Positions 3,080 through 37,313 of a stretch of DNA of 37,313 nucleotides are shown piece by piece. The stretch comes from a virus. The DNA lies in the IMG/VR virus record IMGVR_UViG_3300028549_002563; one strand, 5' to 3'. A model generated the notes under the pieces. The model searched no databases and was not told the DNA's origin. It worked only from the letters and a program-made list of their open reading frames with translations. The translations under genes were made by a program, and so were the position numbers. Every line of letters starts with the position of its first letter. The stretch's first letter is position 1.

Positions 3080-4381
3080 TTATTCAATAAATAATTGTCT
3101 TCTGACTGGATATAATTTATTCACTAAATAACCCAATGCATCTATAATATGATCGTGTCCTGATTTCTTGTCTGGCTGTCCTGTTTTTTCATCATAAGTC
3201 TGTTGTTCTAAATTTTCTGTTAAAGTTTTACATTTATTAGTGTTAATAAATAATCTTCTTATTCCTTTACCGTTTCTAAATAAAGAATTAACAGATAAAA
3301 CCCTATCTTTTATAAGTGGATTAGATTTATCGCTTAAAACATTGAAACCTGCACTTTTTAATAATTGAATATCAGAAGAAGAAGCATTAACACTCTTTCT
3401 TTGATGTCCTGCTGCGTCTGTGCATAAATATAATTCAAAACCGTTATAATTCTCTTTTAAGATCTCGATCATTGATGGAGTATCAAATATCTCTTTTAAT
3501 TCTTCTACTATATATAACTCGTTGTCTTCTTCATTATGTATTGCTACAACTGCTGCCATGTGTTCAACGTTGAAGTCCATTCCTACATAAAGTTTTCTTT
3601 CTTGATCTTTATCTTTAAAAAACTTTTCTATTGTTAAAGAAGTATTACATTCATTTCTTTTAAAATTAACATAAACATTTGAAGCATTAAGATTAACAAA
3701 TTCTCCCTCTAAATAAGCTAGAATTAAATTCTCTGGATATTGTTCTAATAAATCATCTACATAAGTGGAAGGCAAAAATACATTGTTTTTAGTTTTACCT
3801 TTAATTATTTTAAATTTATCTTTATCTTTTGCTTTTGCCCATTTTTCATAAACAAATTTAAACCCTTCTGGCGTTGTTGTTATAAATCCTGTATTTAATG
3901 CATTGAAAGGTTTTAATAAACGATTTCTTGCTGTAATCTTTTCAAATACCGATTTTGCCTTATCTTTTTTTAAAGTATCTAATTCATCAATCCAGAAATC
4001 GGCGTGTTCATAACCGATTATTTTGTCATCGTTATCTAAACTTCTAAAAATTATTTTAGCATTAAACTTTGGAATTATCAAAATCTTATCAGTTTTATTT
4101 AAGCTGTAATCAATTTTTAAATTAGTTAATATAGTTTCAAATCTTGGAAATAAAATAACTTTAATTAAATCGTATGTCGGTTCATATATTCCAAAAACAT
4201 ATTCACCCATATTATTTTCTCTGAAAAGGTTTCCAAAAGTTTTAATATAGTGTAGTGTTCTATATATTCCGCTTTCTGTTTTTCCTGCTCCATAACCTGC
4301 AACTAATGCAGGATATTGTGCTGTGCAATGTAAAAGCTCTAATTGATGTTCTAATAATTTTATTTTTGCTTTTACTTTCAT
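3080..4381 (-). CDS. terL: Terminase large subunit
   Basis: Walker A-like VAGYGAGKTESG and Walker B-like DFWIDELD. The C-terminal half has acidic nuclease-type residues (GMDFN, DAAG, HIIDALGY). Position is after terS. Confidence 0.85.
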   Translation of the reverse strand: MKVKAKIKLLEHQLELLHCTAQYPALVAGYGAGKTESGIYRTLHYIKTFGNLFRENNMGEYVFGIYEPTYDLIKVILFPRFETILTNLKIDYSLNKTDKILIIPKFNAKIIFRSLDNDDKIIGYEHADFWIDELDTLKKDKAKSVFEKITARNRLLKPFNALNTGFITTTPEGFKFVYEKWAKAKDKDKFKIIKGKTKNNVFLPSTYVDDLLEQYPENLILAYLEGEFVNLNASNVYVNFKRNECNTSLTIEKFFKDKDQERKLYVGMDFNVEHMAAVVAIHNEEDNELYIVEELKEIFDTPSMIEILKENYNGFELYLCTDAAGHQRKSVNASSSDIQLLKSAGFNVLSDKSNPLIKDRVLSVNSLFRNGKGIRRLFINTNKCKTLTENLEQQTYDEKTGQPDKKSGHDHIIDALGYLVNKLYPVRRQLFIE

Positions 4382-5712: not shown

Positions 5713-6106
5713 TATCTACATCTCCTTTTAAAACTTCAAAAAAATCTTTTAAATTAGTAGTTTTTTCTACTTTTTTAGTTAATTCAATTGCTTTCTCTTT
5801 TTCAATAATTTTATATTGATATACTATTTTTTGATTATTCTTTGCTTGAATTAATTCTTGCTCATAATAAGTTGTCATTCCAGAAAGTGCTGATTTAAAT
5901 TCTCTTTCTTGATTAGTTAAGTTTTGTTCCATTAATATAATCTTCTTTTCATTTTCTTTAATAGTTTCTGCTTTATTTTTGTTTGAATAATAAAGATAAC
6001 TAAAAGAGCTTATAATAACTCCTACAATAGATAAAATTATTATTAACTTATAAACATTAAAAGCAGGAAATGTAAAAGGGAAAATACTTTTAAATAATTT
6101 TTTCAT
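5699..6106 (-). CDS. Inner-membrane i-spanin candidate
   Basis: N-terminal TM segment (LIIILSIVGVIISSFSYLYY) followed by a charged coiled-coil-like region. Paired with the downstream lipoprotein. Confidence 0.65.
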   Translation of the reverse strand: MKKLFKSIFPFTFPAFNVYKLIIILSIVGVIISSFSYLYYSNKNKAETIKENEKKIILMEQNLTNQEREFKSALSGMTTYYEQELIQAKNNQKIVYQYKIIEKEKAIELTKKVEKTTNLKDFFEVLKGDVDNENK

Positions 6107-6132
6107 TTTATACCTCTTTGTTATTGTTTGTT

Positions 6133-6161
6133 ATTTTATTTATTTTTCTATTAAAAGTCAA
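6133..6161 (-). promoter_or_regulatory. Sigma70-type promoter TTGACT-N17-TAAAAT for the spanin-packaging operon
   Basis: Plus strand shows ATTTTA at 6133-6138 and AGTCAA at 6156-6161, with a spacer of exactly 17. Lies 27 nt upstream of the start at 6106. Confidence 0.65.
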
Positions 6162-6538
6162 TTTTATTTAACAAATAACGCTAAATTAATAAAAAAATAA
6201 CGCTAACTACTATAAAAATAACGCTACTTCAATTTGGCGTTATTGGCTTAAACGCCTATATTACGGGCTTTTAACATAAAAATAACGCTAATAACGCTAA
6301 TAACGAACTTTTTCAGGTTGCACCGTGAAAAATTATATAACATCTCTTTTAAATAGTATAAATATTTCTCACGATGAAAGTTGGATTATTAGCGTTATTG
6401 CGTTATTTTTATATAAATTTAATATAATAATAGTATAATAAACCCTATAAACAGGGCTTTACTAGGTCTTTTTAAAAATAACGCTAACTTTTATTTGGCG
6501 TTATTCTAGCGTTATTTTTGGCGTTTAGCGTTATTTTT
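6150..6538. repeat. R1: ~389-bp long direct repeat (partner at 32659-33047) packed with ATAACGC/GCGTTAT words
   Basis: Manual alignment at a constant offset of 26,509 with no indels. About 9 mismatches over the ~370-bp core 6167-6538. Forward ATAACGC at 6175, 6197, 6218, 6282, 6291 and 6478, with variant ATAACGA at 6300. Reverse GCGTTAT at 6237, 6392, 6400, 6498, 6509 and 6528, with variant GCGTTTA at 6521. Confidence 0.9.
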
Positions 6539-6613
6539 TTTATAATTTAATAAATTCTTTTAAATATTAACTATATTTTTAAATATCTTCTTATTACTAG
6601 TTAATAGAATAAG

Positions 6614-6659
6614 TTCTTATTTCCATTTTAAGCCTTTTCTATTAAATTTAATATATAAT
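6614..6659 (+). promoter_or_regulatory. Candidate early promoter preceded by 13-mer TTCTTATTTCCAT
   Basis: 13-mer at 6614-6626. TATATAAT at 6652-6659. Lies upstream of the ORF at 6684. Confidence 0.45.
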
Positions 6660-6683
6660 TTTGTTATATGGAGGTATAAAAAA

Positions 6684-6992
6684 ATGGAAATCGATTATTA
6701 TCAGTTATCAAAAAGATTAAATACACTTTTCTTATTTGAAGAAATTACAGGTTATTTAAAGGATGCTTTTAAAATATGTTTATTAAACTATGATAAAACA
6801 ATAGAATTCAAAAGTGAAGCACATCTTGAAAAGTTAGCTTCAATAACAATTAATTCTTTTGTTGAAAGAAGAGTTAATTTAAAAAGTAAATTTACAGCAA
6901 TAGAAAGTATTAAGAAAAATAAAGAAGAAGTTTTTGATTTTTTGCAATATGATTTATGGGAAAAATCTATTAATTTAAAAAAATATAGATAA
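6684..6992 (+). CDS. Hypothetical early protein
   Basis: ORF track; SD GGAGG 9 nt upstream of the ATG. Confidence 0.8.
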   Translation: MEIDYYQLSKRLNTLFLFEEITGYLKDAFKICLLNYDKTIEFKSEAHLEKLASITINSFVERRVNLKSKFTAIESIKKNKEEVFDFLQYDLWEKSINLKKYR

Positions 6993-6999
6993 ATTTAAT

Positions 7000-7045
7000 T
7001 TCTTATTTCCATTTTGGAAGATAAGAAAGAAAAATAATATACAAT
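7000..7045 (+). promoter_or_regulatory. 13-mer TTCTTATTTCCAT within a hairpin, followed by -10-like TAATAT/TACAAT
   Basis: 13-mer at 7000-7012. It pairs with GGAAGATAAGAA (7016-7027) as a terminator-like hairpin after the 6684 ORF. -10-like hexamers lie at 7035-7045. Confidence 0.45.
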
Positions 7046-7073
7046 TACAATTAATTACTTGGAGGTAATAAAA

Positions 7074-7469
7074 ATGCAAAAACTTAACACAATCTTAAAT
7101 TTAAGTAAAGGACTTGAAAACTCTACTGAAAAACAACAATTAGAAAGCTTTAAATGTAAATTCTTTTGTCAATTTGATTTACAAATTTTGGCTATGTCTA
7201 AATTTAGTTCTATAAGAAAATTAGTTGCATCTAATGCTAAAACACATAAAGATACTTTAAAATATCTTATTTTAAATGATACAGATATAAATGTAATCAT
7301 TGAAGCTATTAATAACATAAATGTCGATTTAACAAAAGAAGAATTAAAAGAAATTTCTAATTATTTTTATCAAGAAAAAGATATTAATACTTTTTTAATT
7401 GTTAATCAAGAACTAAAAAATAGAAATAAAAAAGCTTTATTTAATAAAGTTATAAGTTTCATAAAATAA
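7074..7469 (+). CDS. Hypothetical early protein (short LRV/HEAT-like repeat pattern)
   Basis: ORF track 7059-7469. The ATG at 7074 follows GGAGG. The SSIRKLVASNAKTHKDTLKYLILNDTDINVI pattern resembles leucine-rich-repeat-variant units (weak). Confidence 0.75.
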   Translation: MQKLNTILNLSKGLENSTEKQQLESFKCKFFCQFDLQILAMSKFSSIRKLVASNAKTHKDTLKYLILNDTDINVIIEAINNINVDLTKEELKEISNYFYQEKDINTFLIVNQELKNRNKKALFNKVISFIK

Positions 7470-7489
7470 ATAAAAAGGAGAATAAAAAA

Positions 7490-7819
7490 ATGAAAAAAAT
7501 GTATGATGTAAAAATGAAAGGAACGTTGGCTTATTTATATAAAGAAATCTTTAAAAGTGATTTACTTTTTTATAAAAATTTAATTGGAATGGAAACAGAA
7601 AGAAAATCAGTTAAAGAAAGTGATAATAATACTTATTGCTTTAAAATTGTTGATATTAAAAAAGTTTCTGGGAAATATAAAGCTGTTATTAAACAAAATT
7701 ATAAAGATTATATTTGTTATTTAGAAAATGGAGATACTGAAAGCAATATTATCCATAAAATATATGATATAAATATTGATGAAGCATTAAAATTCTTTAA
7801 TGTTGAAAGAATAAGTTAA
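7490..7819 (+). CDS. Hypothetical early protein
   Basis: ORF track; SD AAGGAGA upstream. Confidence 0.8.
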   Translation: MKKMYDVKMKGTLAYLYKEIFKSDLLFYKNLIGMETERKSVKESDNNTYCFKIVDIKKVSGKYKAVIKQNYKDYICYLENGDTESNIIHKIYDINIDEALKFFNVERIS

Positions 7820-7942: not shown

Positions 7943-8743
7943 ATGCCATACACATATATATCAAGTTTATTTCAACATTTCGATGAAATCAATGAAATTA
8001 CAACTAAAACAACAACAATAAAAGTTTTTGAAGATAGATTTTTTCTTTTACAAGAAAATAACTTTGAAGAATGTTTTTTAAATTTAGATGAATTACAATC
8101 TAATATTATGTATATTACATATATATTAGATGATAAAAAACAAATAAATAAAATATTTTTAAATAATGTTTTTATTGATAGATTTAATATTATAAGACCC
8201 ACTGTTTTTAACTATTTAAAAGTTGTTTCAGATCATAAAATAGTTTTTATAGATTTCTTTAATTTAAACAAAACTGAATTAAGAAAAATTATTAAAAACA
8301 TTTCTTCTTATTCAATAGATAAAATATTAAAAATTCAAAATACAAATACATTTATGTATTATTTTATTGAAGAAATAGTTAAGCTTCAATTTGAATATTA
8401 TGAATTAGATTATAAGTTTTATTCAAAATTTAAAAAACAAATGAAGAATAATATAAATGAAATGTTATATTTTTCTTTTAAAAATGATTATAACAGTGAT
8501 GAAGAAATAAGATTAAACAAAATGTTAATATCTGATATTGTTGAATTTGTTAATGAATATTCAAGAATTTTCTCTATATCTAAAAAAGGTTTAATAAATA
8601 AAGAAATAATTGAAGATATAAAAAAAGATGAATTAGATTATGTTGAATTTCTAGGAATGAATTTAGATTTTGAAATAGTTATAGTTAGAACTGTTTTAAA
8701 ATTAAATAATATTTTATTTGAAAAGAATAATATACCTTTTTAA
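7943..8743 (+). CDS. Hypothetical early protein, 266 aa
   Basis: ORF track; SD GGAGA upstream. No recognisable motif. Confidence 0.8.
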   Translation: MPYTYISSLFQHFDEINEITTKTTTIKVFEDRFFLLQENNFEECFLNLDELQSNIMYITYILDDKKQINKIFLNNVFIDRFNIIRPTVFNYLKVVSDHKIVFIDFFNLNKTELRKIIKNISSYSIDKILKIQNTNTFMYYFIEEIVKLQFEYYELDYKFYSKFKKQMKNNINEMLYFSFKNDYNSDEEIRLNKMLISDIVEFVNEYSRIFSISKKGLINKEIIEDIKKDELDYVEFLGMNLDFEIVIVRTVLKLNNILFEKNNIPF

Positions 8744-8774
8744 ATAAAAAATAAGGAAAAAGAAATTTTTTTAT

Positions 8775-8820
8775 TTCTTATTTCCATAATTAACATTTCT
8801 TTTTAAGAATGTTGTAATAT
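8775..8820 (+). promoter_or_regulatory. Candidate early promoter: 13-mer, TTAACA-N17-TGTAAT
   Basis: 13-mer at 8775-8787. TTAACA at 8790-8795, spacer 17, TGTAAT at 8813-8818, preceded by TGt (extended -10 style). Confidence 0.55.
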
Positions 8821-8871
8821 TCTCTTAAATATTGATACAAAACTTTTTAGAAAGTTTTATATCAGTATTTG

Positions 8872-8880
8872 AAGTCGTCG
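8872..8880 (+). promoter_or_regulatory. AAGTCGTCG word (copy A) in the leader of the primase-helicase gene
   Basis: Read directly. Starts 44 nt upstream of the ATG at 8916. The next 12 nt (CTTTAATACTAG) are near-identical to copy B. Confidence 0.5.
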
Positions 8881-8915: not shown

Positions 8916-10583
8916 ATGGAAAAAAATGCACAAAAACAATCAAGAATAGCTTCTACATTATTAGCTAACAAGGTTGAAAATGAAATTAAAAAAACAATAG
9001 GTGTAGAAAACGATATTATGTTTGATAGTATTGATGTTGCTGATGAAAACCCTTCTTTAATGTCTATGGCTGAATTAGCTGAAATAGCTGAGGAATTAAA
9101 AAGTGTAAAAAGTATTACAGAAATAAGAGGTTCATTAACTTCTCCAAATGAAGATTTTAAACCTACTTATGATGAATTAATTAAAACTGGAAGAATTGGA
9201 GAAAGTCTTTATATGTATTTTGATTATAACAGAGAAAAATATATATTGTTAGATAAAGAAAGCGGAGATAGAAAAGTTTTAAATACTGCTTCTGCAGGTC
9301 ATAAATTATTTGAAGTTTTTGTTAAATACGGTATAGAATTAAAAAATCCACAATCTGATTTAAAATATGTTAAAAAAGTTATAGTTGATTTTGATTTAAA
9401 AAGACCTGAATTCTGGACTACAAGTATGGGAGATTTCTTAAATGAATTTCAAGAACAAAAAACAAAATTAGGTGTTATTTCTGATTTAAGAAAAGAAGAA
9501 ACAGAAAGATATAAAAATTTAGCTTTTTTAAAAAATAACTGTAAAGCTATTTATTCTTTACTTTATAATTTACATGAGAATAATGATGATGCGGTAAAAC
9601 ACTTCATTAATTATTTAAGCACATTTGTAAATGAAAGAGAAAAAATACCTACTGCTTTTATGTATGCAGGTATTGAAGGTGCAGGTAAAGGTATATTAGT
9701 GTCAGTTGTTTTGTCTTATATCCTTGGAGATGAATATACAACAAGTCAAATGGCATCATCTCTTAAAAAAGATTTCAACGGTTCATTAGAAAATAAATTA
9801 TTAGTTAATTTTAATGAAGTTTCATCTGATTTTTCAAAAACAGATTCTGCTACACAAAATTTAAAAAGTTTAATAACTGATAATACATTTTCGTTAAATG
9901 TTAAAAATCAAAAAGAATTTGACGCTAAAAATAATTTTATTGTTATATTAAGTCAAAATATTAAAACAGGCGTTAAAATATCTTTAACAGATAGAAGATT
10001 TAATTATTTCGTTCAAGAAAGAACATTAAAAGATGTTGCTGAAAAAGATTTTAAAAAATCTATTAAAGTATTCATTGAAGAAGATATTAAATCTGAATTA
10101 GATAACTTTGTAAGATTTATTGCTTTATTTGATTATGATAAATATATAGCACAAGATTTATTCGAAACAGAAAGTAAAAGAAGAGCACAGGTTGCTACAA
10201 GTTCATCATTTGATGTTTTAATTAAACAATTAAAAGAAAGAGATTTAATGGCTATTGTAAGTGATGTAGAAGATATAGTTAATGCTTATAATGAAAGTGA
10301 TGATAAAAAGAAATATACAGATAACTATTATTCTTGTATTAGACTTTATAAATCAGCTTTAAAAGATTTAGAAGATGAATTAGAAAAAGATTGTATTAGC
10401 AATAAAACTTTAACTTGTATTTATAGTATTTTAGTAGAAGATGCTTCAACTAAAACAGATAGATTACTTAATAAAATATTTGAAAGTCATTTTGGAAAAT
10501 CAATTGTTAAAACTATTAATGGAGAAACAAAAAGAGTTAGAAGTTTAAAATCTTCTTTTGATGAAAAAGAAGTATGTTTTTAA
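8916..10583 (+). CDS. SF3 helicase / D5-P4-family primase-helicase-like replication protein
   Basis: Walker A GIEGAGKGIL and Walker B-like LLVNFNEV, in a size and context typical of the phage/plasmid primase P4-family C-terminal domain. Start moved from 8832 (non-ATG) to the ATG at 8916, which follows GGAGA. Confidence 0.7.
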   Translation: MEKNAQKQSRIASTLLANKVENEIKKTIGVENDIMFDSIDVADENPSLMSMAELAEIAEELKSVKSITEIRGSLTSPNEDFKPTYDELIKTGRIGESLYMYFDYNREKYILLDKESGDRKVLNTASAGHKLFEVFVKYGIELKNPQSDLKYVKKVIVDFDLKRPEFWTTSMGDFLNEFQEQKTKLGVISDLRKEETERYKNLAFLKNNCKAIYSLLYNLHENNDDAVKHFINYLSTFVNEREKIPTAFMYAGIEGAGKGILVSVVLSYILGDEYTTSQMASSLKKDFNGSLENKLLVNFNEVSSDFSKTDSATQNLKSLITDNTFSLNVKNQKEFDAKNNFIVILSQNIKTGVKISLTDRRFNYFVQERTLKDVAEKDFKKSIKVFIEEDIKSELDNFVRFIALFDYDKYIAQDLFETESKRRAQVATSSSFDVLIKQLKERDLMAIVSDVEDIVNAYNESDDKKKYTDNYYSCIRLYKSALKDLEDELEKDCISNKTLTCIYSILVEDASTKTDRLLNKIFESHFGKSIVKTINGETKRVRSLKSSFDEKEVCF

Positions 10584-10725: not shown

Positions 10726-11124
10726 ATGAAAAACTTATTAACTGTAAATAAAGAACTTGTTTTGCTTGAAAAAGCATTGTTATCTAATGTTATGTTTTTA
10801 GATGAAAATAATAAAGGAGGTTATTTCTATTATTTTAAAAAAAATATAAATACCTTTAATTTAGTATTTGATGTTTTAAATGCTAGAAAAGATGGATATT
10901 CTTTATTATCTTATAATGAAACATCTAATGAAATGATTATTATCGTCAATGGAGTATCAAAAGAACTTAAAATAACTGATTTTTTTGAATACTTTGTTTA
11001 TCCATCAATATCAATTAAAGAAGCTGATGAATTAAGAAGACATTTTATTAATATACAAATATCTTATGAAGATTTAATTAATAGAATGCGTTCTAAATAT
11101 CAAAAAGAATATGATGTTATATAA
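10726..11124 (+). CDS. Hypothetical early protein
   Basis: ORF track; SD GGGAGGAG upstream. Confidence 0.8.
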   Translation: MKNLLTVNKELVLLEKALLSNVMFLDENNKGGYFYYFKKNINTFNLVFDVLNARKDGYSLLSYNETSNEMIIIVNGVSKELKITDFFEYFVYPSISIKEADELRRHFINIQISYEDLINRMRSKYQKEYDVI

Positions 11125-11153
11125 GGGCTATAAATGCCCTTTAAGGCTTAAAT

Positions 11154-11173
11154 AAATACTTCAAGGAGTATTT
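11154..11173 (+). terminator. Hairpin AAATACT-tcaagg-AGTATTT followed by a T-rich run
   Basis: 7-bp stem read directly, 30 nt after the stop of the 10726 ORF. Confidence 0.4.
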
Positions 11174-11186
11174 GTTTAAGTTTTAA

Positions 11187-11195
11187 AAGTCGTCG
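11187..11195 (+). promoter_or_regulatory. AAGTCGTCG word (copy B) upstream of the small ORF plus tnpB
   Basis: Read directly. AAGTCGTCGCTTTAAAACTA differs from copy A (AAGTCGTCGCTTTAATACTA) at 1 position in 20. Confidence 0.5.
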
Positions 11196-11236
11196 CTTTA
11201 AAACTACTTAAAATAACAAAGACGGGAGATAACAAA

Positions 11237-11380
11237 ATGAAAAATGCGAACTTGAATACTGTTGCTTTAACAAAAGCTTTAAATAACCTAAACTCTCTAC
11301 TAGAAGATATATTTTTATCTAACTTAAATAAAGATACAGAATTGGCGTATAAAGCGTTTAAATGTATCAAAAACGCTTAA
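11237..11380 (+). CDS. Small hypothetical protein, 47 aa (MKNANLNTVALTKALNNLNSLLEDIFLSNLNKDTELAYKAFKCIKNA)
   Basis: Hand-translated and below the ORF-track cutoff. SD GGGAGA lies 7 nt upstream. Ends 19 nt before the tnpB-like start. Confidence 0.55.
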   Translation: MKNANLNTVALTKALNNLNSLLEDIFLSNLNKDTELAYKAFKCIKNA

Positions 11381-11399
11381 TTAATAAAAGGTGATAGAT

Positions 11400-12776
11400 A
11401 TGTATTACTTTAAACAAAACCTTAAAGAAAAGGATTTAAAAGATAAAAAGGAGATATTATCTCCTCTTTTTGAAACTGCTAGAAAATTTTATAATGAATT
11501 AGTTTATAATGCTAAAAATAAAGAAGATAAATTTACTTATTCTTTAAATGATAAAACTATTTCAAATTCAATACACGCTAAGAAACTAGGAAGTTTTTTA
11601 GTTAAAACTATTACTTATAACTTCAATATCAACACTTCAAATTATTTAAAAAATCAATCAAAAGATGCTTCTTATTCAAAACCCAGTTTTAGAAATAAAG
11701 ATAGTGAATTTTTTATTAGTTTTTATGGAAATAATATAAGTGTTAAAAATGATTATATTAATTTAAAATTAAATACTAAAACTATAAGTTTTAAAATTCC
11801 TAAAAATTTCTTTTTAAAACATAAAGAAATAAAACAATTAAGATTACACATATCTAAATACGGTTATTATTTAGTTTATCATTATGAAAACGCAATAAAC
11901 ACATCTAATACGCTTAAATATAAAGCAGGTATAGATTTAGGCGTTGATACATTAATAGCGTGTTATTCAGAAGATATAGCTCCGTTAATTATTTCTGGAA
12001 AATATATTAAATATTTAAATTATAAGTTTTCTTTAAAAATAGAAAATGCTTCTAATGAAGAAGATGTTTTAAGAATAAAAAAAGAACGTGATTTTAAAAT
12101 AAAAGCATCTATAACATTTGCTGTTAAGAGATTATTTGATTATTTAAACTATGCTAATGTAAAAGAAATTTATCTTGGAGATTTTAACGGTATAAAAGAA
12201 AAAGTTGTAGCTAGAAACTTTTATTTTATACCGCATCATTTTTTAAGAAGAAAAATTAAAGATTACTGTCAAAAGTTTAATATTAAATTTAATCTTCAAG
12301 AAGAAAGTTATACATCTAAAACTTCTTTTTATGATTTAGAAAAACCTGTTAAACAAAATTTTTCAGGAGAACGTATAGAACGTGGATTATTTAGAACAAA
12401 AGATGGATTATTGATACATGCAGATATTAACGGTTCAGCTCAAATATTATCTAAAAAACATTTAGTTATTAATAGAGATAATATATTGTTAAAACCTTTT
12501 TTTATTGATTTAGTTAAAGAAGAAATAAAAGTTAAAAGTAAAATCAAGTGTTTTTTTAGTAAAGAATATAAAAAAGAAAAAACAATAGAAGAAAAATTTA
12601 AACAACATAAGAAAGACCCTTTAAATTTTTATTTTGAAAAATATGCTTCTTTTAATGCTTATAATAACGCAGGAACTAAAATGTTTTATTTTTATGATAA
12701 AAAAGATAAAACTATAAAATCTAACATAAAAAACAATGAACAACTTGTAAATAAGTTTTTCAATAAACTTATTTGA
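11400..12776 (+). CDS. tnpB: TnpB-like RuvC-fold protein (IS200/IS605 accessory / IS1341-like clade), stand-alone
   Basis: RuvC-I is AGIDLGVDTL (Asp at nt 11934-11936). GDFNGIK stands where the canonical EDL glutamate would be. An alternative Glu lies in QEESYTSK. RuvC-III is HADINGSAQIL. The GERIERGLF segment replaces the CxxC zinc-finger pairs. ATG at 11400 follows AAGGTGA; the track start at 11391 is GTG. Confidence 0.8.
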   Translation: MYYFKQNLKEKDLKDKKEILSPLFETARKFYNELVYNAKNKEDKFTYSLNDKTISNSIHAKKLGSFLVKTITYNFNINTSNYLKNQSKDASYSKPSFRNKDSEFFISFYGNNISVKNDYINLKLNTKTISFKIPKNFFLKHKEIKQLRLHISKYGYYLVYHYENAINTSNTLKYKAGIDLGVDTLIACYSEDIAPLIISGKYIKYLNYKFSLKIENASNEEDVLRIKKERDFKIKASITFAVKRLFDYLNYANVKEIYLGDFNGIKEKVVARNFYFIPHHFLRRKIKDYCQKFNIKFNLQEESYTSKTSFYDLEKPVKQNFSGERIERGLFRTKDGLLIHADINGSAQILSKKHLVINRDNILLKPFFIDLVKEEIKVKSKIKCFFSKEYKKEKTIEEKFKQHKKDPLNFYFEKYASFNAYNNAGTKMFYFYDKKDKTIKSNIKNNEQLVNKFFNKLI

Positions 12777-12796
12777 TAAAATTATATAATTAAATG

Positions 12797-12827
12797 CCTT
12801 AAAATAAGATTAGTTATTTTTTTAAGG
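12797..12827 (+). terminator. Hairpin CCTTAAAA-N15-TTTTAAGG followed by tattatttt
   Basis: 8-bp stem read directly, 20 nt after the tnpB stop. Confidence 0.4.
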
Positions 12828-12899
12828 TATTATTTTAACTGTAAACGATTAATAATATCGGTTTAGAGTGGCTCTCTTAAAAATGCCTTCCAACTTCAC

Positions 12900-12918
12900 G
12901 CCCTTTTAATTTAAGGGC
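12900..12918. terminator. GC-rich hairpin GCCCTT-ttaattt-AAGGGC between convergent genes
   Basis: 6-bp stem. Lies between the tnpB 3' region and the stop of the minus-strand ORF at 12924. Confidence 0.4.
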
Positions 12919-12923
12919 TCTTC

Positions 12924-13298
12924 TTATTGCTTTACTGTATCAAATATTAACTTTATAATACCTGCTAAAATAGATGCTAATAATATAAAATTTGTTTGTC
13001 TTAAACTTGTTCTTACAATATCCAATTCTTTTTCAACTGACTCTAATTTAACTTGATTTGCATGTTGTTCTAAACTACAAGAATTTAAAGCATCTAATTG
13101 ATTTTCAACTACTCTAAATTTCTCTGTATGTGTTATTTGTGTTTCTAATATTCTTGAAATAGATTTTAATTCTGATTTAACTTCACTTAAATCATTTTTA
13201 AGATAATTAAGATGTTCTGACATTTTATCAGAAGATCTATTTATTTCATTAACTGTTGTTTTTAACTTTTCTATTGCTTCTGCTGTTATGTTTTCCAT
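12924..13298 (-). CDS. Coiled-coil protein with C-terminal membrane anchor (XhlA-like?)
   Basis: Heptad-like charged N-terminal 100 aa, then FILLASILAGIIKLIF. Last gene of the late operon. The family call is tentative. Confidence 0.6.
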   Translation of the reverse strand: MENITAEAIEKLKTTVNEINRSSDKMSEHLNYLKNDLSEVKSELKSISRILETQITHTEKFRVVENQLDALNSCSLEQHANQVKLESVEKELDIVRTSLRQTNFILLASILAGIIKLIFDTVKQ

Positions 13299-27985: not shown

Positions 27986-28504
27986 TTAACCTCTATAAAT
28001 CCCTATTGAGCTAACACCTGAACCCTCTATATAACCGCTTAAAAGTGTTTTTAAATAAGGATGATTTACAAATATATTTCTTTCTTTTATTTTATTTTCA
28101 AAATAAGATTTTTCTAAAACATCCGCTTTTTCTGATTGAACTTGGGCTTTTGTTGATGTGTTTATAATAGTTGATATAGTTCCATTTTTTAATTCACAAG
28201 CAATATAAGCAGTTGCTATTTTAACATTATCATTAATAATATAAAGTTCTGTTTCATCTTCAAATGAGCGAGGGAATTGTAAATTTTGAAGATAATATTG
28301 TTTATGTCCTTCATATTCAAATAAGTTATCTAAAATACGTGTAGCATTAACTAATATATTTTCTTTATTTTCTGTTGTTTCTGCTAATAAAGATATTGAA
28401 TTAACTAAATAATCTTTATTTATAATTAAATCTAATTCATCAACAGTTATATAACTTGTAGCAGTTAAAACCGTTCCTTCTGTATATACTTCAAAATTAA
28501 ACAT
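27986..28504 (-). CDS. Head-tail connector (gp6-like) candidate
   Basis: Position only; abuts the upstream gene, sharing one base at 28504. Confidence 0.45.
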   Translation of the reverse strand: MFNFEVYTEGTVLTATSYITVDELDLIINKDYLVNSISLLAETTENKENILVNATRILDNLFEYEGHKQYYLQNLQFPRSFEDETELYIINDNVKIATAYIACELKNGTISTIINTSTKAQVQSEKADVLEKSYFENKIKERNIFVNHPYLKTLLSGYIEGSGVSSIGIYRG

Positions 28505-29272: not shown

Positions 29273-29812
29273 TTATAACAAATTATAAGAAGCTAATAAA
29301 TAAGCATCAATTATATCTTCAAATTTTTTCGAAGTATCTTTTAATTTAGAGGTTTTACTTAATAATTCTATTTCTATATCTTCTAAACATTGTTTCATTT
29401 CATCTTTTCTTGCTTTACCGCTTCCAGTTGCTTTAAATTTTAACGAGTTGGGACTTATAACTTCAAAACTTATCTTTTTCTTATTAAATTCATATAATAA
29501 AACATAATATAAACCCGCTAATTGTCTAACACTTGAAGTGTTGGAAGCATAACTTAAACCTTCTATATGTATATGTTCTACTTTATATTCTTTAATTAAA
29601 CTTAAAACTTCATCTACAATAATTCCTATTCTTTCTTCTAAAAACTTATCAGGTTTAGTAGCTACACCTTTCGTTAATATTATTTCTCTTTCATTTTCTA
29701 AAATATTATTTTTTAATATACATATTCCAGTGTGTGAAAATGATGGATCTAATCCCATAACTATCTTAGCGTTCTCTTTTTTAACTGAATTGTTATTTAC
29801 ATAATTTGCCAT
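29273..29812 (-). CDS. ruvC: RuvC-like Holliday junction resolvase
   Basis: MGLDPSFSHTGICIL (catalytic Asp), HIHIEGLSY (Glu) and IIDAYLLA (Asp) appear in RuvC order. Start moved from 29827 to the ATG at 29812, which follows GAGGT. Confidence 0.7.
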   Translation of the reverse strand: MANYVNNNSVKKENAKIVMGLDPSFSHTGICILKNNILENEREIILTKGVATKPDKFLEERIGIIVDEVLSLIKEYKVEHIHIEGLSYASNTSSVRQLAGLYYVLLYEFNKKKISFEVISPNSLKFKATGSGKARKDEMKQCLEDIEIELLSKTSKLKDTSKKFEDIIDAYLLASYNLL

Positions 29813-29893
29813 TTTATTACCTCGCATTTATTATTTAAAGCAGTATATACTAAATAATAATAAAACTGTTTTTAAGGGAGTTAATTAATAATT

Positions 29894-31747: not shown

Positions 31748-31756
31748 AAGTCGTCT
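31748..31756 (+). promoter_or_regulatory. AAGTCGTCT word (copy C2)
   Basis: Read directly. Followed by the 11-bp hairpin TGTTATAAAAG (31760-31770) / CTTTTATAACA (31785-31795), whose loop is aaaatgcgaataaa. Confidence 0.45.
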
Positions 31757-32670: not shown

Positions 32671-33047
32671 AATGTTTTAACAAATAACGCTAAATTAATA
32701 AAAAAATAACGCTAACCGCTATAAAAATAACGCTACTTCAATTTGGCGTTATTGGCTTAAACGCCTATATTGTGGGCTTTTAAGATAAAAATAACGCTAA
32801 TAACGCTAATAACGAACTTTTTCAGGTTGCACCGTGAAAAATTATATAACATCTCTTTTAAATAGTATAAATATTTCTCACGATGAAAGTTGGATTATTA
32901 GCGTTATTGCGTTATTTTTATATAAATTTAATATAATAATAGTATAACAAACCCTATAAACAGGGCTTTATTAGGTCTTTTAAAAAATAACGCTAACTTT
33001 TATTTGGCGTTATTTTAGCGTTATTTTTGGCGTTTAGCGTTATTTTT
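32659..33047. repeat. R2: second copy of the ~389-bp ATAACGC-rich repeat
   Basis: See R1. Same orientation, offset 26,509, and all ATAACGC/GCGTTAT words conserved. Confidence 0.9.
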
Positions 33048-35827: not shown

Positions 35828-36670
35828 TTATATCTCCGTGTTTAAAACTTTTTTTAATATATCAATACCTTTATTATCTCTTATAAAAACATCAAATTCA
35901 TTTAAAATTCTTTTTCTTGAAGATTTAGTTTCACCTTTATAAAACTCTTCATATAAAGTTTCTCCTGTATATTCTTTATCTATAAGAAAATACAATACAC
36001 CTCCCGCTATATCAACATTATTAAAAACTTCTTTACTACTTTTAAAGTCCTTTATATATTTAATGTGTGGATAATTTAAAAAGAAGTTTCTGAATTTATC
36101 TAATCCCTTTCCGCCTGTTAAAAATCTTGAAGGAACAATAAAACTAATATATCTACAATTCATTTCTATTGCTTGTAATATAAAATTCTGATAAATCGGT
36201 TTAGCAGATGCTCCAAATCCGCCGTCCATCATCTGATACGGTGGATTTCCTATAATAATATCAAATTCATAATTTTTAAAATAATTATCTTTTAAAGTAT
36301 CTTGGCAAATAATATTTTTACTTAATTTATCTTTAAAAAATAATAAATCATCAAAAGATAAATTAAATTTTTCAGAACAAGAACTTAATATTAAAAACAA
36401 TCTTTCAATAGTATCATTAACATTTATTTCACATATATCAGAACCGAATATAGAAGTTATAGCAATATATAAATCTTCTATATCTTTACAATTAGATAAT
36501 TTTCTTTTTAATATAGCATCTAAAAAATTACCGTTTCCGCAAGTAGGTTCAAAATAAGTAGTTTTTATTTCATAACTTTCTTTTTTATTTAAATCTAACA
36601 TTTCATTAACAATAAAATCAGGAGTATAAACTTCTCCAAGTCCTTTTATTCTTTCAGTTGTTTCTTTCAT
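35828..36670 (-). CDS. N6-adenine DNA methyltransferase catalytic module (gamma class) lacking its own TRD
   Basis: Motif I is FEPTCGNGNFL and motif IV is IIIGNPPYQ, in that order. 280 aa, which is about the size of the M.TaqI catalytic domain alone. Confidence 0.8.
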   Translation of the reverse strand: MKETTERIKGLGEVYTPDFIVNEMLDLNKKESYEIKTTYFEPTCGNGNFLDAILKRKLSNCKDIEDLYIAITSIFGSDICEINVNDTIERLFLILSSCSEKFNLSFDDLLFFKDKLSKNIICQDTLKDNYFKNYEFDIIIGNPPYQMMDGGFGASAKPIYQNFILQAIEMNCRYISFIVPSRFLTGGKGLDKFRNFFLNYPHIKYIKDFKSSKEVFNNVDIAGGVLYFLIDKEYTGETLYEEFYKGETKSSRKRILNEFDVFIRDNKGIDILKKVLNTEI

Positions 36671-37036: not shown

Positions 37037-37231
37037 ATGAAAAATCTAAGATTTGTTATTAGTTTAACAGATAAAGAATATAATTCTTATTATATTGCTG
37101 ATTATAACGCTAAAACTAATTTAATACATAAAGCTTTATCATTTAAAGATGAAGAAACTGCTAAAAACTATATTTTTTTAAACATAAATAAAGAAAATTA
37201 TATAAATTTTAAATTAATTCCTATTATTTAA
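37037..37231 (+). CDS. Hypothetical early protein, 64 aa
   Basis: ORF track; SD AGAGGA upstream. Its 3' part lies in the terminal redundancy, so bases 1-139 are the same gene's 3' end. Confidence 0.75.
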   Translation: MKNLRFVISLTDKEYNSYYIADYNAKTNLIHKALSFKDEETAKNYIFLNINKENYINFKLIPII

Positions 37232-37313
37232 CATTTCTTATTTCCATTTTTAACATTAACTTTTAATTTTATGTTAATATTCTTCTGTTATAAAAAAATG
37301 CGGAGGTATAACA
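37093..37313. repeat. Second copy of the 221-bp terminal redundancy
   Basis: Identical to 1-221 by manual comparison. Implies a unit genome of 37,092 bp. Confidence 0.95.
37235..37280 (+). promoter_or_regulatory. Duplicate of the 143-188 early promoter region (terminal redundancy)
   Basis: 13-mer at 37235-37247; identical to 143-155. Confidence 0.5.

Follow-up and report, generated by a model that had tools for sequence, protein, structure and literature searches.

Is the stand-alone tnpB-like gene at 11391..12776 (+ strand) of the IMG/VR virus record IMGVR_UViG_3300028549_002563 a passenger insertion sequence (IS), or has it become a working gene of the phage that carries it? Phage TnpB genes in the literature examined are mostly passenger ISs, and the TnpBs for which domestication has been reported are in the main either CRISPR effectors or regulators without nuclease activity (TldR, sigma-associated and others). 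We analyzed the whole stretch of 37,313 nt (hereafter the window), which is a complete genome, of about 23% G+C, from an uncultured phage. An initial annotation, made from the letters of the window, had left two possibilities for the gene: a tnpB-only IS inserted in the phage, or a domesticated RNA-guided nuclease or regulator. As set out below, a recent passenger IS is excluded and the second possibility is supported; we read the locus, with a probability of roughly 55%, as an immobilised TnpB-family RNA-guided nuclease whose guide most likely comes from a stand-alone small-RNA gene.

Protein family and catalytic motifs

The open reading frame (ORF) encodes 461 aa when read from the GTG at 11391 and 458 aa when read from the ATG at 11400. 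The ATG is the likelier start, since a Shine-Dalgarno-like AAGGTGA precedes it and the MYYFKQ N-termini of the homologs match it; residue numbers are nevertheless counted from the GTG throughout. Homology searches placed the product inside the TnpB/Cas12 RuvC superfamily far above chance. It matched NCBIfam NF040570 (guided_TnpB) with E = 2.3e-22 over residues 17-355, at 79.8 bits, which is under the curated cutoff of 100, and PHROG 506 ('transposase') with E = 1e-18, and the Pfam matches to OrfB_IS605 and Cas12f1-like_TNB were both sub-threshold. A search of the PDB with a 57-sequence profile retrieved solved TnpB and Cas12f chains (5e-16 to 5e-9). Furthermore, Foldseek with the AlphaFold2 model (pLDDT 87.7, pTM 0.70) retrieved AsCas12f (6e-16), ISDra2 TnpB (8h1j, 7e-13) and also ISFba1 TnpB with a probability of 1.0 and TM scores of 0.55-0.64. 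Because profile and fold similarity both extend over the WED-REC-RuvC core, the protein is a member of this superfamily. When the region was compared by megablast with 50,697 phage records no match was obtained, and the phage is thus unrepresented there.

The protein was aligned with 56 homologs, comprising cyanobacterial TnpBs annotated as IS200/IS605 (414-424 aa), a Sulfobacillus TnpB and unannotated metagenomic sequences, and the motifs quoted in the initial annotation were all located where it had put them. The RuvC-I aspartate, D182, lies in GIDLGVD (codon 11934..11936); Gly263 occupies the canonical site of the RuvC-II glutamate in EIYLGDFNGIK, at the end of strand beta-4 (12177..12179); the predicted relocated catalytic glutamate, E305, lies in QEESYTSK, just past beta-5 (12303..12305); and the RuvC-III aspartate, D345, lies in HADINGSAQIL (12423..12425). 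All four codons are on the + strand, and all four residues are invariant in the 57 sequences, cellular IS copies included. In the AlphaFold2 model beta-5 covers residues 299-304, and E305 follows this strand, which is the next one after the strand ending in G263. No C4 zinc finger was seen in the segment between E305 and D345, where none of the aligned sequences shown has a CxxC..CxxC; between RuvC-II and RuvC-III the phage clade has 0-3 scattered cysteines and the cellular relatives shown have at most four, with no CxxC pair.

A clade with such features has been published. Altae-Tran et al. (2023, PNAS; PMC10691335) described RuvC-II-rearranged TnpBs in which Glu is replaced by Gly (RIIr-5), a compensating Glu stands on beta-5 as in RuvX and RuvC-III carries NADxN; in their account some large branches have lost the zinc finger, and one branch, RIIr-4, is virus-specific. 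Judged by this motif description, the protein belongs to the published clade. The initial annotation had treated the relocated glutamate and the absent finger as oddities of the gene. Both were found to be common to all cellular relatives, the multi-copy cyanobacterial IS copies included; since a clade that is large, known and partly mobile has both traits, they do not make the gene unusual. With D182, E305 and D345 kept throughout, the nuclease is probably active.

The mobility of the cellular relatives was seen in Microcoleus sp. Neu2020_600 (loci L109-L154), which has at least 14 copies of the element in one genome. Its right end is sharp, reading ...GGGGAGTGTCAA (also given as ...CCCCGTGTCTTTAGACCGGGGAGTGTCAA) before unrelated flanks, and so is its left end, which begins at about TTAT and continues with AAGAAATACCC (also given as AAGAAATACCCTGAAAACCCTG); this suggests a TTAT-type target-adjacent motif (TAM) for the mobile relatives. 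A Microcystis relative was also tried as a definer of the element ends and was rejected, its exact-sequence copies all lying in one chromosomal context. The phage clade shares with the RIIr clades the Gly at the RuvC-II Glu site, the alternative invariant Glu on the next strand (EESYTSK) and (N/H)ADxN in RuvC-III, but it is without transposon ends, TnpA and extra copies, it has no counterpart of the INIGK.NNQNFVQIP insertion of the cellular relatives, and half of its members bear an extra C-terminal domain of about 85 aa.

Two side observations concern the reading frame. The public (JGI) call of this ORF (protein P0001) ends in ...NKLIW, the TGA (12774-12779) having been taken as Trp under code 4. 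An alternative genetic code was considered and rejected: TGA terminates 6 of 46 ORFs, two of them as ATGA start/stop overlaps, and the genome is without split ORFs. The Trp codon TGG makes up only 0.4% of the codons in the genome, and the terminase gene call of the related phage L002 (344-370, - strand) overruns an in-frame stop by nine codons, which may also reflect a non-standard code. Within the first 75 nt of the coding sequence (CDS), at 11449-11465, a perfect palindrome, AGGAGATATTATCTCCT, followed by CTTTTT was noticed; it is terminator-like on both strands and may be an attenuator or a protein-binding site.

Fixation of the gene in a phage family

The closest homologs of the protein, from 85% down to 34% identity, were found nearly all on phage-sized contigs of 14-37 kb. 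Fifteen related phage contigs extend over this region, and the gene has the same place in every one of them (the window, L001, L002, L003, L005, L007, L008, L011, L012, L067, L068/L390, L069, L070 and the 26-kb phages L162 and L164): it directly follows a DUF5906/VapE-like helicase-type replication gene, its constant upstream neighbour (8916..10583, + strand, in the window; PF19263, E = 4.5e-14), with 0-6 small unconserved ORFs between the two. In most contigs the rightward early/replication block ends with this gene, which is convergent with the leftward lysis and tail genes; in a few lineages more rightward genes come after it.

The divergence of the gene was then compared with that of its neighbours. 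Pairwise identities of the TnpB-like and DUF5906 proteins were correlated with a Pearson r of 0.915 (78 pairs, 13 phages); their means were 40.8% and 35.6%, respectively, and the TnpB-like protein was the more conserved of the two in 85% of the pairs. Against the nearest relative, the ratio of nonsynonymous to synonymous substitution rates (dN/dS) was 0.255 for the TnpB-like gene and 0.19 for its core, with values of 0.07 for the DUF5906 gene, 0.05 for the XhlA-like gene downstream and 0.03 for the terminase. The TnpB-like gene is under purifying selection, which is looser than that on the neighbouring genes.

Signs of recent movement were sought in several ways. Identical copies with IS ends scattered in host genomes, which the initial annotation had named as the mark of an ordinary passenger, did not turn up: among 185,579 species, each represented by one genome, the nearest cellular sequence reached 33% identity and came from a Campylobacterales metagenome-assembled genome. 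No IS-type end repeats were found flanking the gene, which is single-copy in the complete genome, and no CRISPR array or spaced repeats occur anywhere in the window. The absence of tnpA was borne out, as none of the 32 window ORFs scanned against Pfam has a Y1 or serine transposase domain. Related phages lacking the gene, by which insertion boundaries were to have been defined, were not found in terminase- and DUF5906-based searches, every junction-covering contig having the gene. A metagenome scan with the protein alignment returned mostly distant cellular relatives and added one family member.

A small-RNA gene lying downstream of the TnpB-like gene

The 147 bp following the gene (12777-12923) had been suggested as the region in which a guide RNA should be sought. 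It does hold a small-RNA gene, which is conserved and shows covariation; a guide-target pair was not found. The 3′ spacers cannot be aligned between phages save for one island. Between the window and L001 this island is 95% identical and the TnpB CDS 88%, and the spacers upstream of the island (60 nt and 146 nt) are unaligned, at 34%.

The island holds a candidate guide-RNA scaffold of about 90 nt (12837..12926, + strand) with three predicted hairpins and an 8-nt tail. Its 5′ end, placed by sequence conservation, is AACUGUAAA, with a conserved A-A-n-U-G-U-A-A-A-C. The first hairpin, P1 (12846-12849/12857-12860), pairs CGAU with AUCG here and is formed by CCG/CGG, CGGC/GUCG or CGGG/CCCG elsewhere; P2 (12865-12868/12874-12877; AGAG-UGGCU-CUCU) displays exchanges between G-C, A-U and U-A pairs, and its loop, UGRYU, is conserved. 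Next comes a single-stranded, A-rich linker (12878-12899) with a semi-conserved CUUCCAA at 12887-12893, and then P3 (12900..12918), a GC-rich hairpin picked up by a terminator scan, whose sequence differs in almost every phage. All these elements are on the + strand. A hairpin of differing sequence stands at the P3 site in 12 phage RNAs, and P3 is probably the terminator of the small RNA. Upstream of the RNA, a -10-like box, TATTAT (12828..12833, + strand), keeps a fixed spacing to the conserved 5′ end. Most lineages have TATAAT instead, four of them with an extended TG, and the boxes GATATAAT, TGTATAAT, TGTTATAAT and TGCTATAAT are equidistant in L001, L002, L003, L007, L008, L011, L067, L069 and L306.

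The initial annotation had taken P3 (GCCCTT..AAGGGC) and a second GC hairpin at 11125-11139 (GGGC-TATAAAT-GCCC) as possible IS200/IS605 subterminal hairpins. Both hairpins are present at these positions, but they are not subterminal hairpins of that kind. The left one, AAGGGC-TATAAAT-GCCCTT at its full extent (11123..11141, + strand), comes directly after the stop codon of a 132-aa ORF (10726..11124) and is, from its position and form, probably a terminator closing the preceding unit and not an IS left end.

In a seven-sequence alignment of the RNA 86% of the cells pair, and double changes occur at 5 of 11 pairs, with compensatory changes in both P1 and P2. The covariation score was 0.368 as compared with 0.144 in shuffled alignments, none of 500 reaching the observed value, and all slid registers collapsed. 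Single sequences fold to the same three hairpins, with z = -3.3 listed for the window RNA and values down to -3.6.

A covariance model of P1, P2 and the linker (R1) was used for searching. The RNA of the window scored 77.1 bits (E = 4e-13); scores of 49-79 bits (E from 7e-7 to 2e-13) were obtained in eight distinct phages and of 25.9 bits in a ninth, and the other viral and cellular loci searched, about 1.8 Mb, gave nothing convincing. By eye, more diverged forms can be recognised in L008, L012, L069 and L306. The RNA was found only in genomes carrying the TnpB-like gene and, in eight of the nine R1 lineages, at most about 300 bp from the gene's 3′ end. Rfam 15 gave no match in the window at the gathering score and only chance-level matches at E <= 10 in 12400-13000; it has no family for the omega-RNA of the cellular relatives either. 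A degenerate DNA pattern for the RNA core was also run against IMG/VR, and none of the matches listed was confirmed by R1; a stricter pattern returned two already known contigs only.

The orientation of the RNA varies. Seven of the nine R1 lineages have it co-oriented with the gene and two have it inverted. In the 26-kb phages the inverted RNA converges on the TnpB-like gene. In L011 it lies on the opposite strand, 1.6 kb from the gene, and there, too, it converges with the gene that occupies the position of the XhlA-like gene, which in the window (12924..13298, - strand) encodes a 124-aa coiled-coil protein of lysis-module type with a C-terminal membrane helix and a weak XhlA-like match (PF10779, E = 0.033 only). 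This variable orientation means that the RNA is an autonomous gene; such a gene is equally compatible with a trans-acting guide RNA and with an unrelated small RNA. We also noted that in L011 (IMGVR_UViG_3300028534_000295) a block of four lysis-type genes together with the RNA (6051-7651) is inverted relative to the other members, and that in L389 (= L162; IMGVR_UViG_3300009964_000031; 8680-8830) the terminal hairpin lies about 60 nt farther from the CUUCCAA-type linker than in the others.

Possible pairing of the RNA with the protein

Whether this RNA serves the TnpB-like protein as its guide RNA was judged from several comparisons, on which we consider the pairing slightly favoured. In seven lineages the RNA lies just 3′ of the gene on the same strand, the canonical place of an omega-RNA. 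Its length, about 90 nt from the predicted start to 8 nt past P3, is like that of TldR guide scaffolds (95-100 nt). Furthermore, the order of hairpin, UUAAA..CUUC.., GC hairpin and about 8 nt ending in CAA resembles the 3′ ends of the relatives' omega-RNAs, for example ...UAGCUUAGGCUAUUAAACUUCUCAUGAAUC-[hairpin]-AGGUUCAA and then the flank. A typical TnpB omega-RNA spans the 3′ end of the gene and the right end of the element, whereas the phage RNA does not overlap the CDS and has its own -10 box.

The following results weigh against a nuclease guided by this RNA. The comparison with omega-RNA families, which the initial annotation had proposed, was negative beyond Rfam as well: covariance models of the cellular omega-RNA 3′ module (R2 and R3) failed on the phage RNA even without filters, and their own module was recovered in 25 loci of cellular or viral origin, each time where it was expected. 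Because R2 and R3 do not detect the phage RNA, its homology to the omega-RNAs is a matter of short motif resemblance only. No segment of the RNA and no candidate guide had a second match in the phage genome above chance, the best being a T-rich 15/16 match at 3254. A U-run follows P3 in L007 and L008, so the RNA would end there before any downstream guide. In L011 the RNA is inverted along with the lysis genes and lies beside the XhlA-like counterpart, 1.6 kb from tnpB, and L390 has the gene with no RNA detected in the 13 kb available. As for the protein, no demonstration of nuclease activity in the rearranged, zinc-finger-less clade was found in the literature searched, and, in comparison with the closest relative, the gene changes more rapidly than the genes around it (dN/dS 0.26 versus 0.03-0.07).

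With these points counted, we propose the following course of events. The protein would be an immobilised TnpB-family nuclease encoded by a vertically inherited gene of a family of tailed phages of about 26-37 kb, and the stand-alone small-RNA gene would most likely supply its guide RNA. This RNA would be transcribed on its own and bind the protein as an omega-RNA-like scaffold, and the complex would cut DNA complementary to a short guide segment beside a TAM. Two stretches may serve as the guide. In the canonical layout it would be the roughly 16 nt after the scaffold, from 12927 onward (12927..12942, + strand), which is antisense to the last codons of 12924..13298; this candidate was chosen by analogy with the sharp boundary of scaffold and flank in the mobile relatives. 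Alternatively, the variable stretch after CUUCCAA, P3 included, could be the guide, by analogy with the relatives' boundary of ...TCAA and then flank. Because no second match exists within the phage genome, the target would most plausibly lie outside it, either in the host or in a related phage infecting the same cell (homing-type competition or marker exclusion). The gene would thereby be an early-expressed accessory weapon and not a transposon relic.

A more general proposition is put forward tentatively and at less than even odds. In this phage family a transposon TnpB may have been made a permanent and active RNA-guided nuclease, its guide RNA having been uncoupled into a promoter-scaffold-terminator gene that can stand in either orientation, and the pair may be used early against a fixed target, in competing relatives or in the host chromosome. 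If true, this would be an independent, array-less step from omega-RNA towards the separately encoded guide RNAs of the CRISPR type.

Alternative explanations

The alternative that survives best, though we regard it as doubtful, is that the small RNA has nothing to do with the TnpB-like protein: it would be an antisense or terminator-linked regulator of the lysis module, and the protein would use another RNA (e.g., one derived from its own mRNA) or none. The arrangement in L011 speaks for it, the RNA there having been inverted with four lysis-type genes and being convergent with the last of them, the XhlA-like counterpart, at 1.6 kb from tnpB; so do the convergence of the RNA in L389 with whichever gene faces it, the undetected RNA of L390, the failure of the cellular omega-RNA model on the phage RNA and the resemblance of P3 to a shared terminator. 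An antisense regulator should however overlap its target, and the conserved part of the RNA is outside the convergent CDS; the conserved stems P1 and P2, with their compensatory changes, lie a long way from the stretch shared with the convergent gene. An unrelated RNA also fits poorly with its occurrence in genomes with the TnpB-like gene only and with its position in eight of nine lineages, within some 300 bp of the gene's 3′ end, where an omega-RNA would canonically lie.

We think it unlikely that the locus is a fixed selfish RNA-guided homing element, whose right flank would be the guide and which would cut co-infecting relatives without the cassette and be copied into them by recombination ('transposon non-restorative homing'). 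Homing of this kind has been discussed for phages (PMC13565253), in the canonical layout the guide is the flank that comes after the scaffold, as was seen in mobile copies from Microcoleus, and this flank is here the conserved end of the convergent gene; a dN/dS above that of the neighbours would fit an accessory or a selfish gene. On the other hand, homing endonuclease genes of the free-standing type have a patchy distribution in related phages, whereas the present gene was in every contig (15 of 15); it has diverged in step with the helicase-like gene down to about 34-36% identity, and no cassette-less relative that could be the target was found.

A nuclease-inactive RNA-guided DNA-binding regulator, similar to TldR and repressing a host or phage promoter, is distinctly improbable. 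Phage-borne domesticated TnpB repressors (TldR) do exist, the canonical RuvC-II Glu and the zinc finger are absent here, and the semi-conserved single-stranded CUUCCAA could be a fixed guide against a conserved site. TldRs, however, have lost catalytic residues or the whole of RuvC-III, whereas D182, E305 and D345 are invariant in the 57 sequences, among them multi-copy cellular IS copies whose active maintenance would need cleavage, and no promoter-type target was found in the phage genome.

Finally, although tnpB copies identical to the host's are known in phages (e.g., cyanophage A-1(L)) and many phage records have annotated TnpB genes, it is very improbable that the gene is an ordinary passenger, i.e., a tnpB-only IS200/IS605 remnant lately inserted with the two GC hairpins as its subterminal hairpins, given the same position in 15 related phages at 85% down to 34% identity, a divergence that tracks the helicase-like gene, no end repeats, no relative above 33% in the genomes of 185,579 species, a left hairpin that abuts the stop codon of the previous ORF and a right hairpin that belongs to the conserved RNA.

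Comparison with known systems

The phage locus was compared with systems of related composition. The ISDra2-type TnpB of IS200/IS605 has the same fold (Foldseek 7e-13 to 8h1j) and, likewise, a structured RNA immediately 3′ of the gene, in most of the phage lineages on the gene's own strand, with a scaffold size of the same order; the phage gene differs in having no IS and no zinc finger and a rearranged Glu, and its RNA has its own putative promoter, does not overlap the CDS and is invertible. TldR (Wiegand et al., bioRxiv 10.1101/2023.11.30.569447) is likewise an immobilised, phage-borne TnpB descendant with a guide scaffold of about 95-100 nt downstream, but the D-E-D residues lost in TldRs are invariant in the phage protein, the TldR guides match a host promoter whereas no match exists here in the phage genome, and the neighbours are flagellin or ABC transporter genes in the one case and a replication helicase-like gene in the other. 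PrimPol-TnpB and other non-mobile, apparently active TnpBs (PMC10691335) are likewise fixed and catalytically intact and share an operon with a replication-type protein; those genes are chromosomal, in Deinococcus, and stand beside PrimPol, whereas ours is a phage gene beside a DUF5906/VapE-like NTPase.

The best structural match was to AsCas12f (6e-16), and Cas12f and other type V CRISPR effectors further resemble the locus in a small RNA gene transcribed separately near the effector, as predicted for the phage; the phage genome, however, is without a CRISPR array or repeats and has a single fixed RNA. The Seg and Mob homing endonucleases of T4 are comparable as site-specific nuclease genes between conserved phage genes which could give marker exclusion in co-infection, but they are protein-guided and patchy, whereas the phage TnpB is RNA-guided by ancestry and occurs in each of the relatives found.

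The literature searched has phage tnpB genes that are passengers, TldRs that phages carry and that lack nuclease activity and, in cells, a small number of TnpBs that are both fixed and active; no such arrangement as the present one is described there. The catalytic rearrangement and the absent finger are clade traits and already known. What is new is that a TnpB, to all appearance an active one, has become fixed among the core genes of a phage family, beside a replication helicase-like gene, and that a separate small-RNA gene with its own putative promoter travels with it. Here a compact (about 370-460 aa) TnpB, active-looking and without a zinc finger, would have been kept naturally by selection in a viral core genome, together with a short (about 90 nt), independently transcribed RNA. 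If the pairing of the two is confirmed, it would give TnpB a new role in phage-phage or phage-host conflict, provide a minimal protein-RNA pair of possible use in genome editing, and represent an evolutionary intermediate in which the guide RNA gene is separating from the nuclease gene. The nine model-detected lineages and the few recognised by eye offer natural variation for defining scaffold, guide and TAM.

C-terminal extension

The initial annotation had described a tail of 116 aa. There are indeed 116 residues past D345; the real extension, however, amounts to about 85-90 aa, as the tail-less homologs themselves reach about residue 372-376. It comprises residues ~377-461 (12519..12773, + strand), is present in the 13 closest homologs only and is predicted to have an alpha-alpha-beta-beta-beta-alpha fold, with a pLDDT of 83.7 when modelled alone and of about 90 in the full model. 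Foldseek found no structural relative of it in the PDB (best E = 0.69). Against the nearest relative the extension evolves faster than the core (dN/dS 0.32 versus 0.19).

Upstream region and other features of the genome

A leader word of the phage had been noted before the gene, and this was confirmed: AAGTCGTCG lies at 11187..11195 (+ strand), 41 nt upstream of a 47-aa ORF (11237..11380, + strand). Exact copies occur at 8872, 11187 and 31665 and copies with one mismatch at 31748 and 33129, all on the + strand, making 5 against 0.92 expected, and a rightward start codon (8916, 11237 and ~33165) follows each copy at 27-41 nt. From this placement AAGTCGTCG looks like a promoter or leader element of rightward transcription units; as it recurs before other rightward starts, the 47-aa ORF and the TnpB-like gene may form a unit of their own. 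The 47-aa ORF itself is lineage-specific, without a Pfam or PHROG match. It was considered as a conserved partner and rejected: a homolog (98%) was found in L001 only, and the small ORFs at this place in six other phages do not align with it.

The window has an exact terminal direct repeat of 221 nt (1-221 = 37093-37313), leaving 37,092 nt of unique sequence, and is circularly closed or terminally redundant. The terminase is about 40% identical to those of siphophages infecting Gram-negative bacteria. The phage also encodes a genuine RuvC Holliday-junction resolvase (PF02075, 1e-13), an Eco57I-type N6 DNA methyltransferase (7e-23) and a DnaT_2-like single-stranded DNA-binding protein, located at 29273-29827, 35828-36670 and 27986-28504, respectively (all - strand); it thus has a recombination toolkit and DNA modification besides the TnpB-like nuclease. 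Furthermore, a segment of about 360 bp is duplicated at 6174-6527 and 32683-33036, 26,509 nt apart, in two large divergent intergenic regions. Each copy has the 9-mer AATAACGCT six times in direct and three times in inverted orientation, with identical spacing, and the segments may be iteron or operator arrays, perhaps origin or repressor sites.

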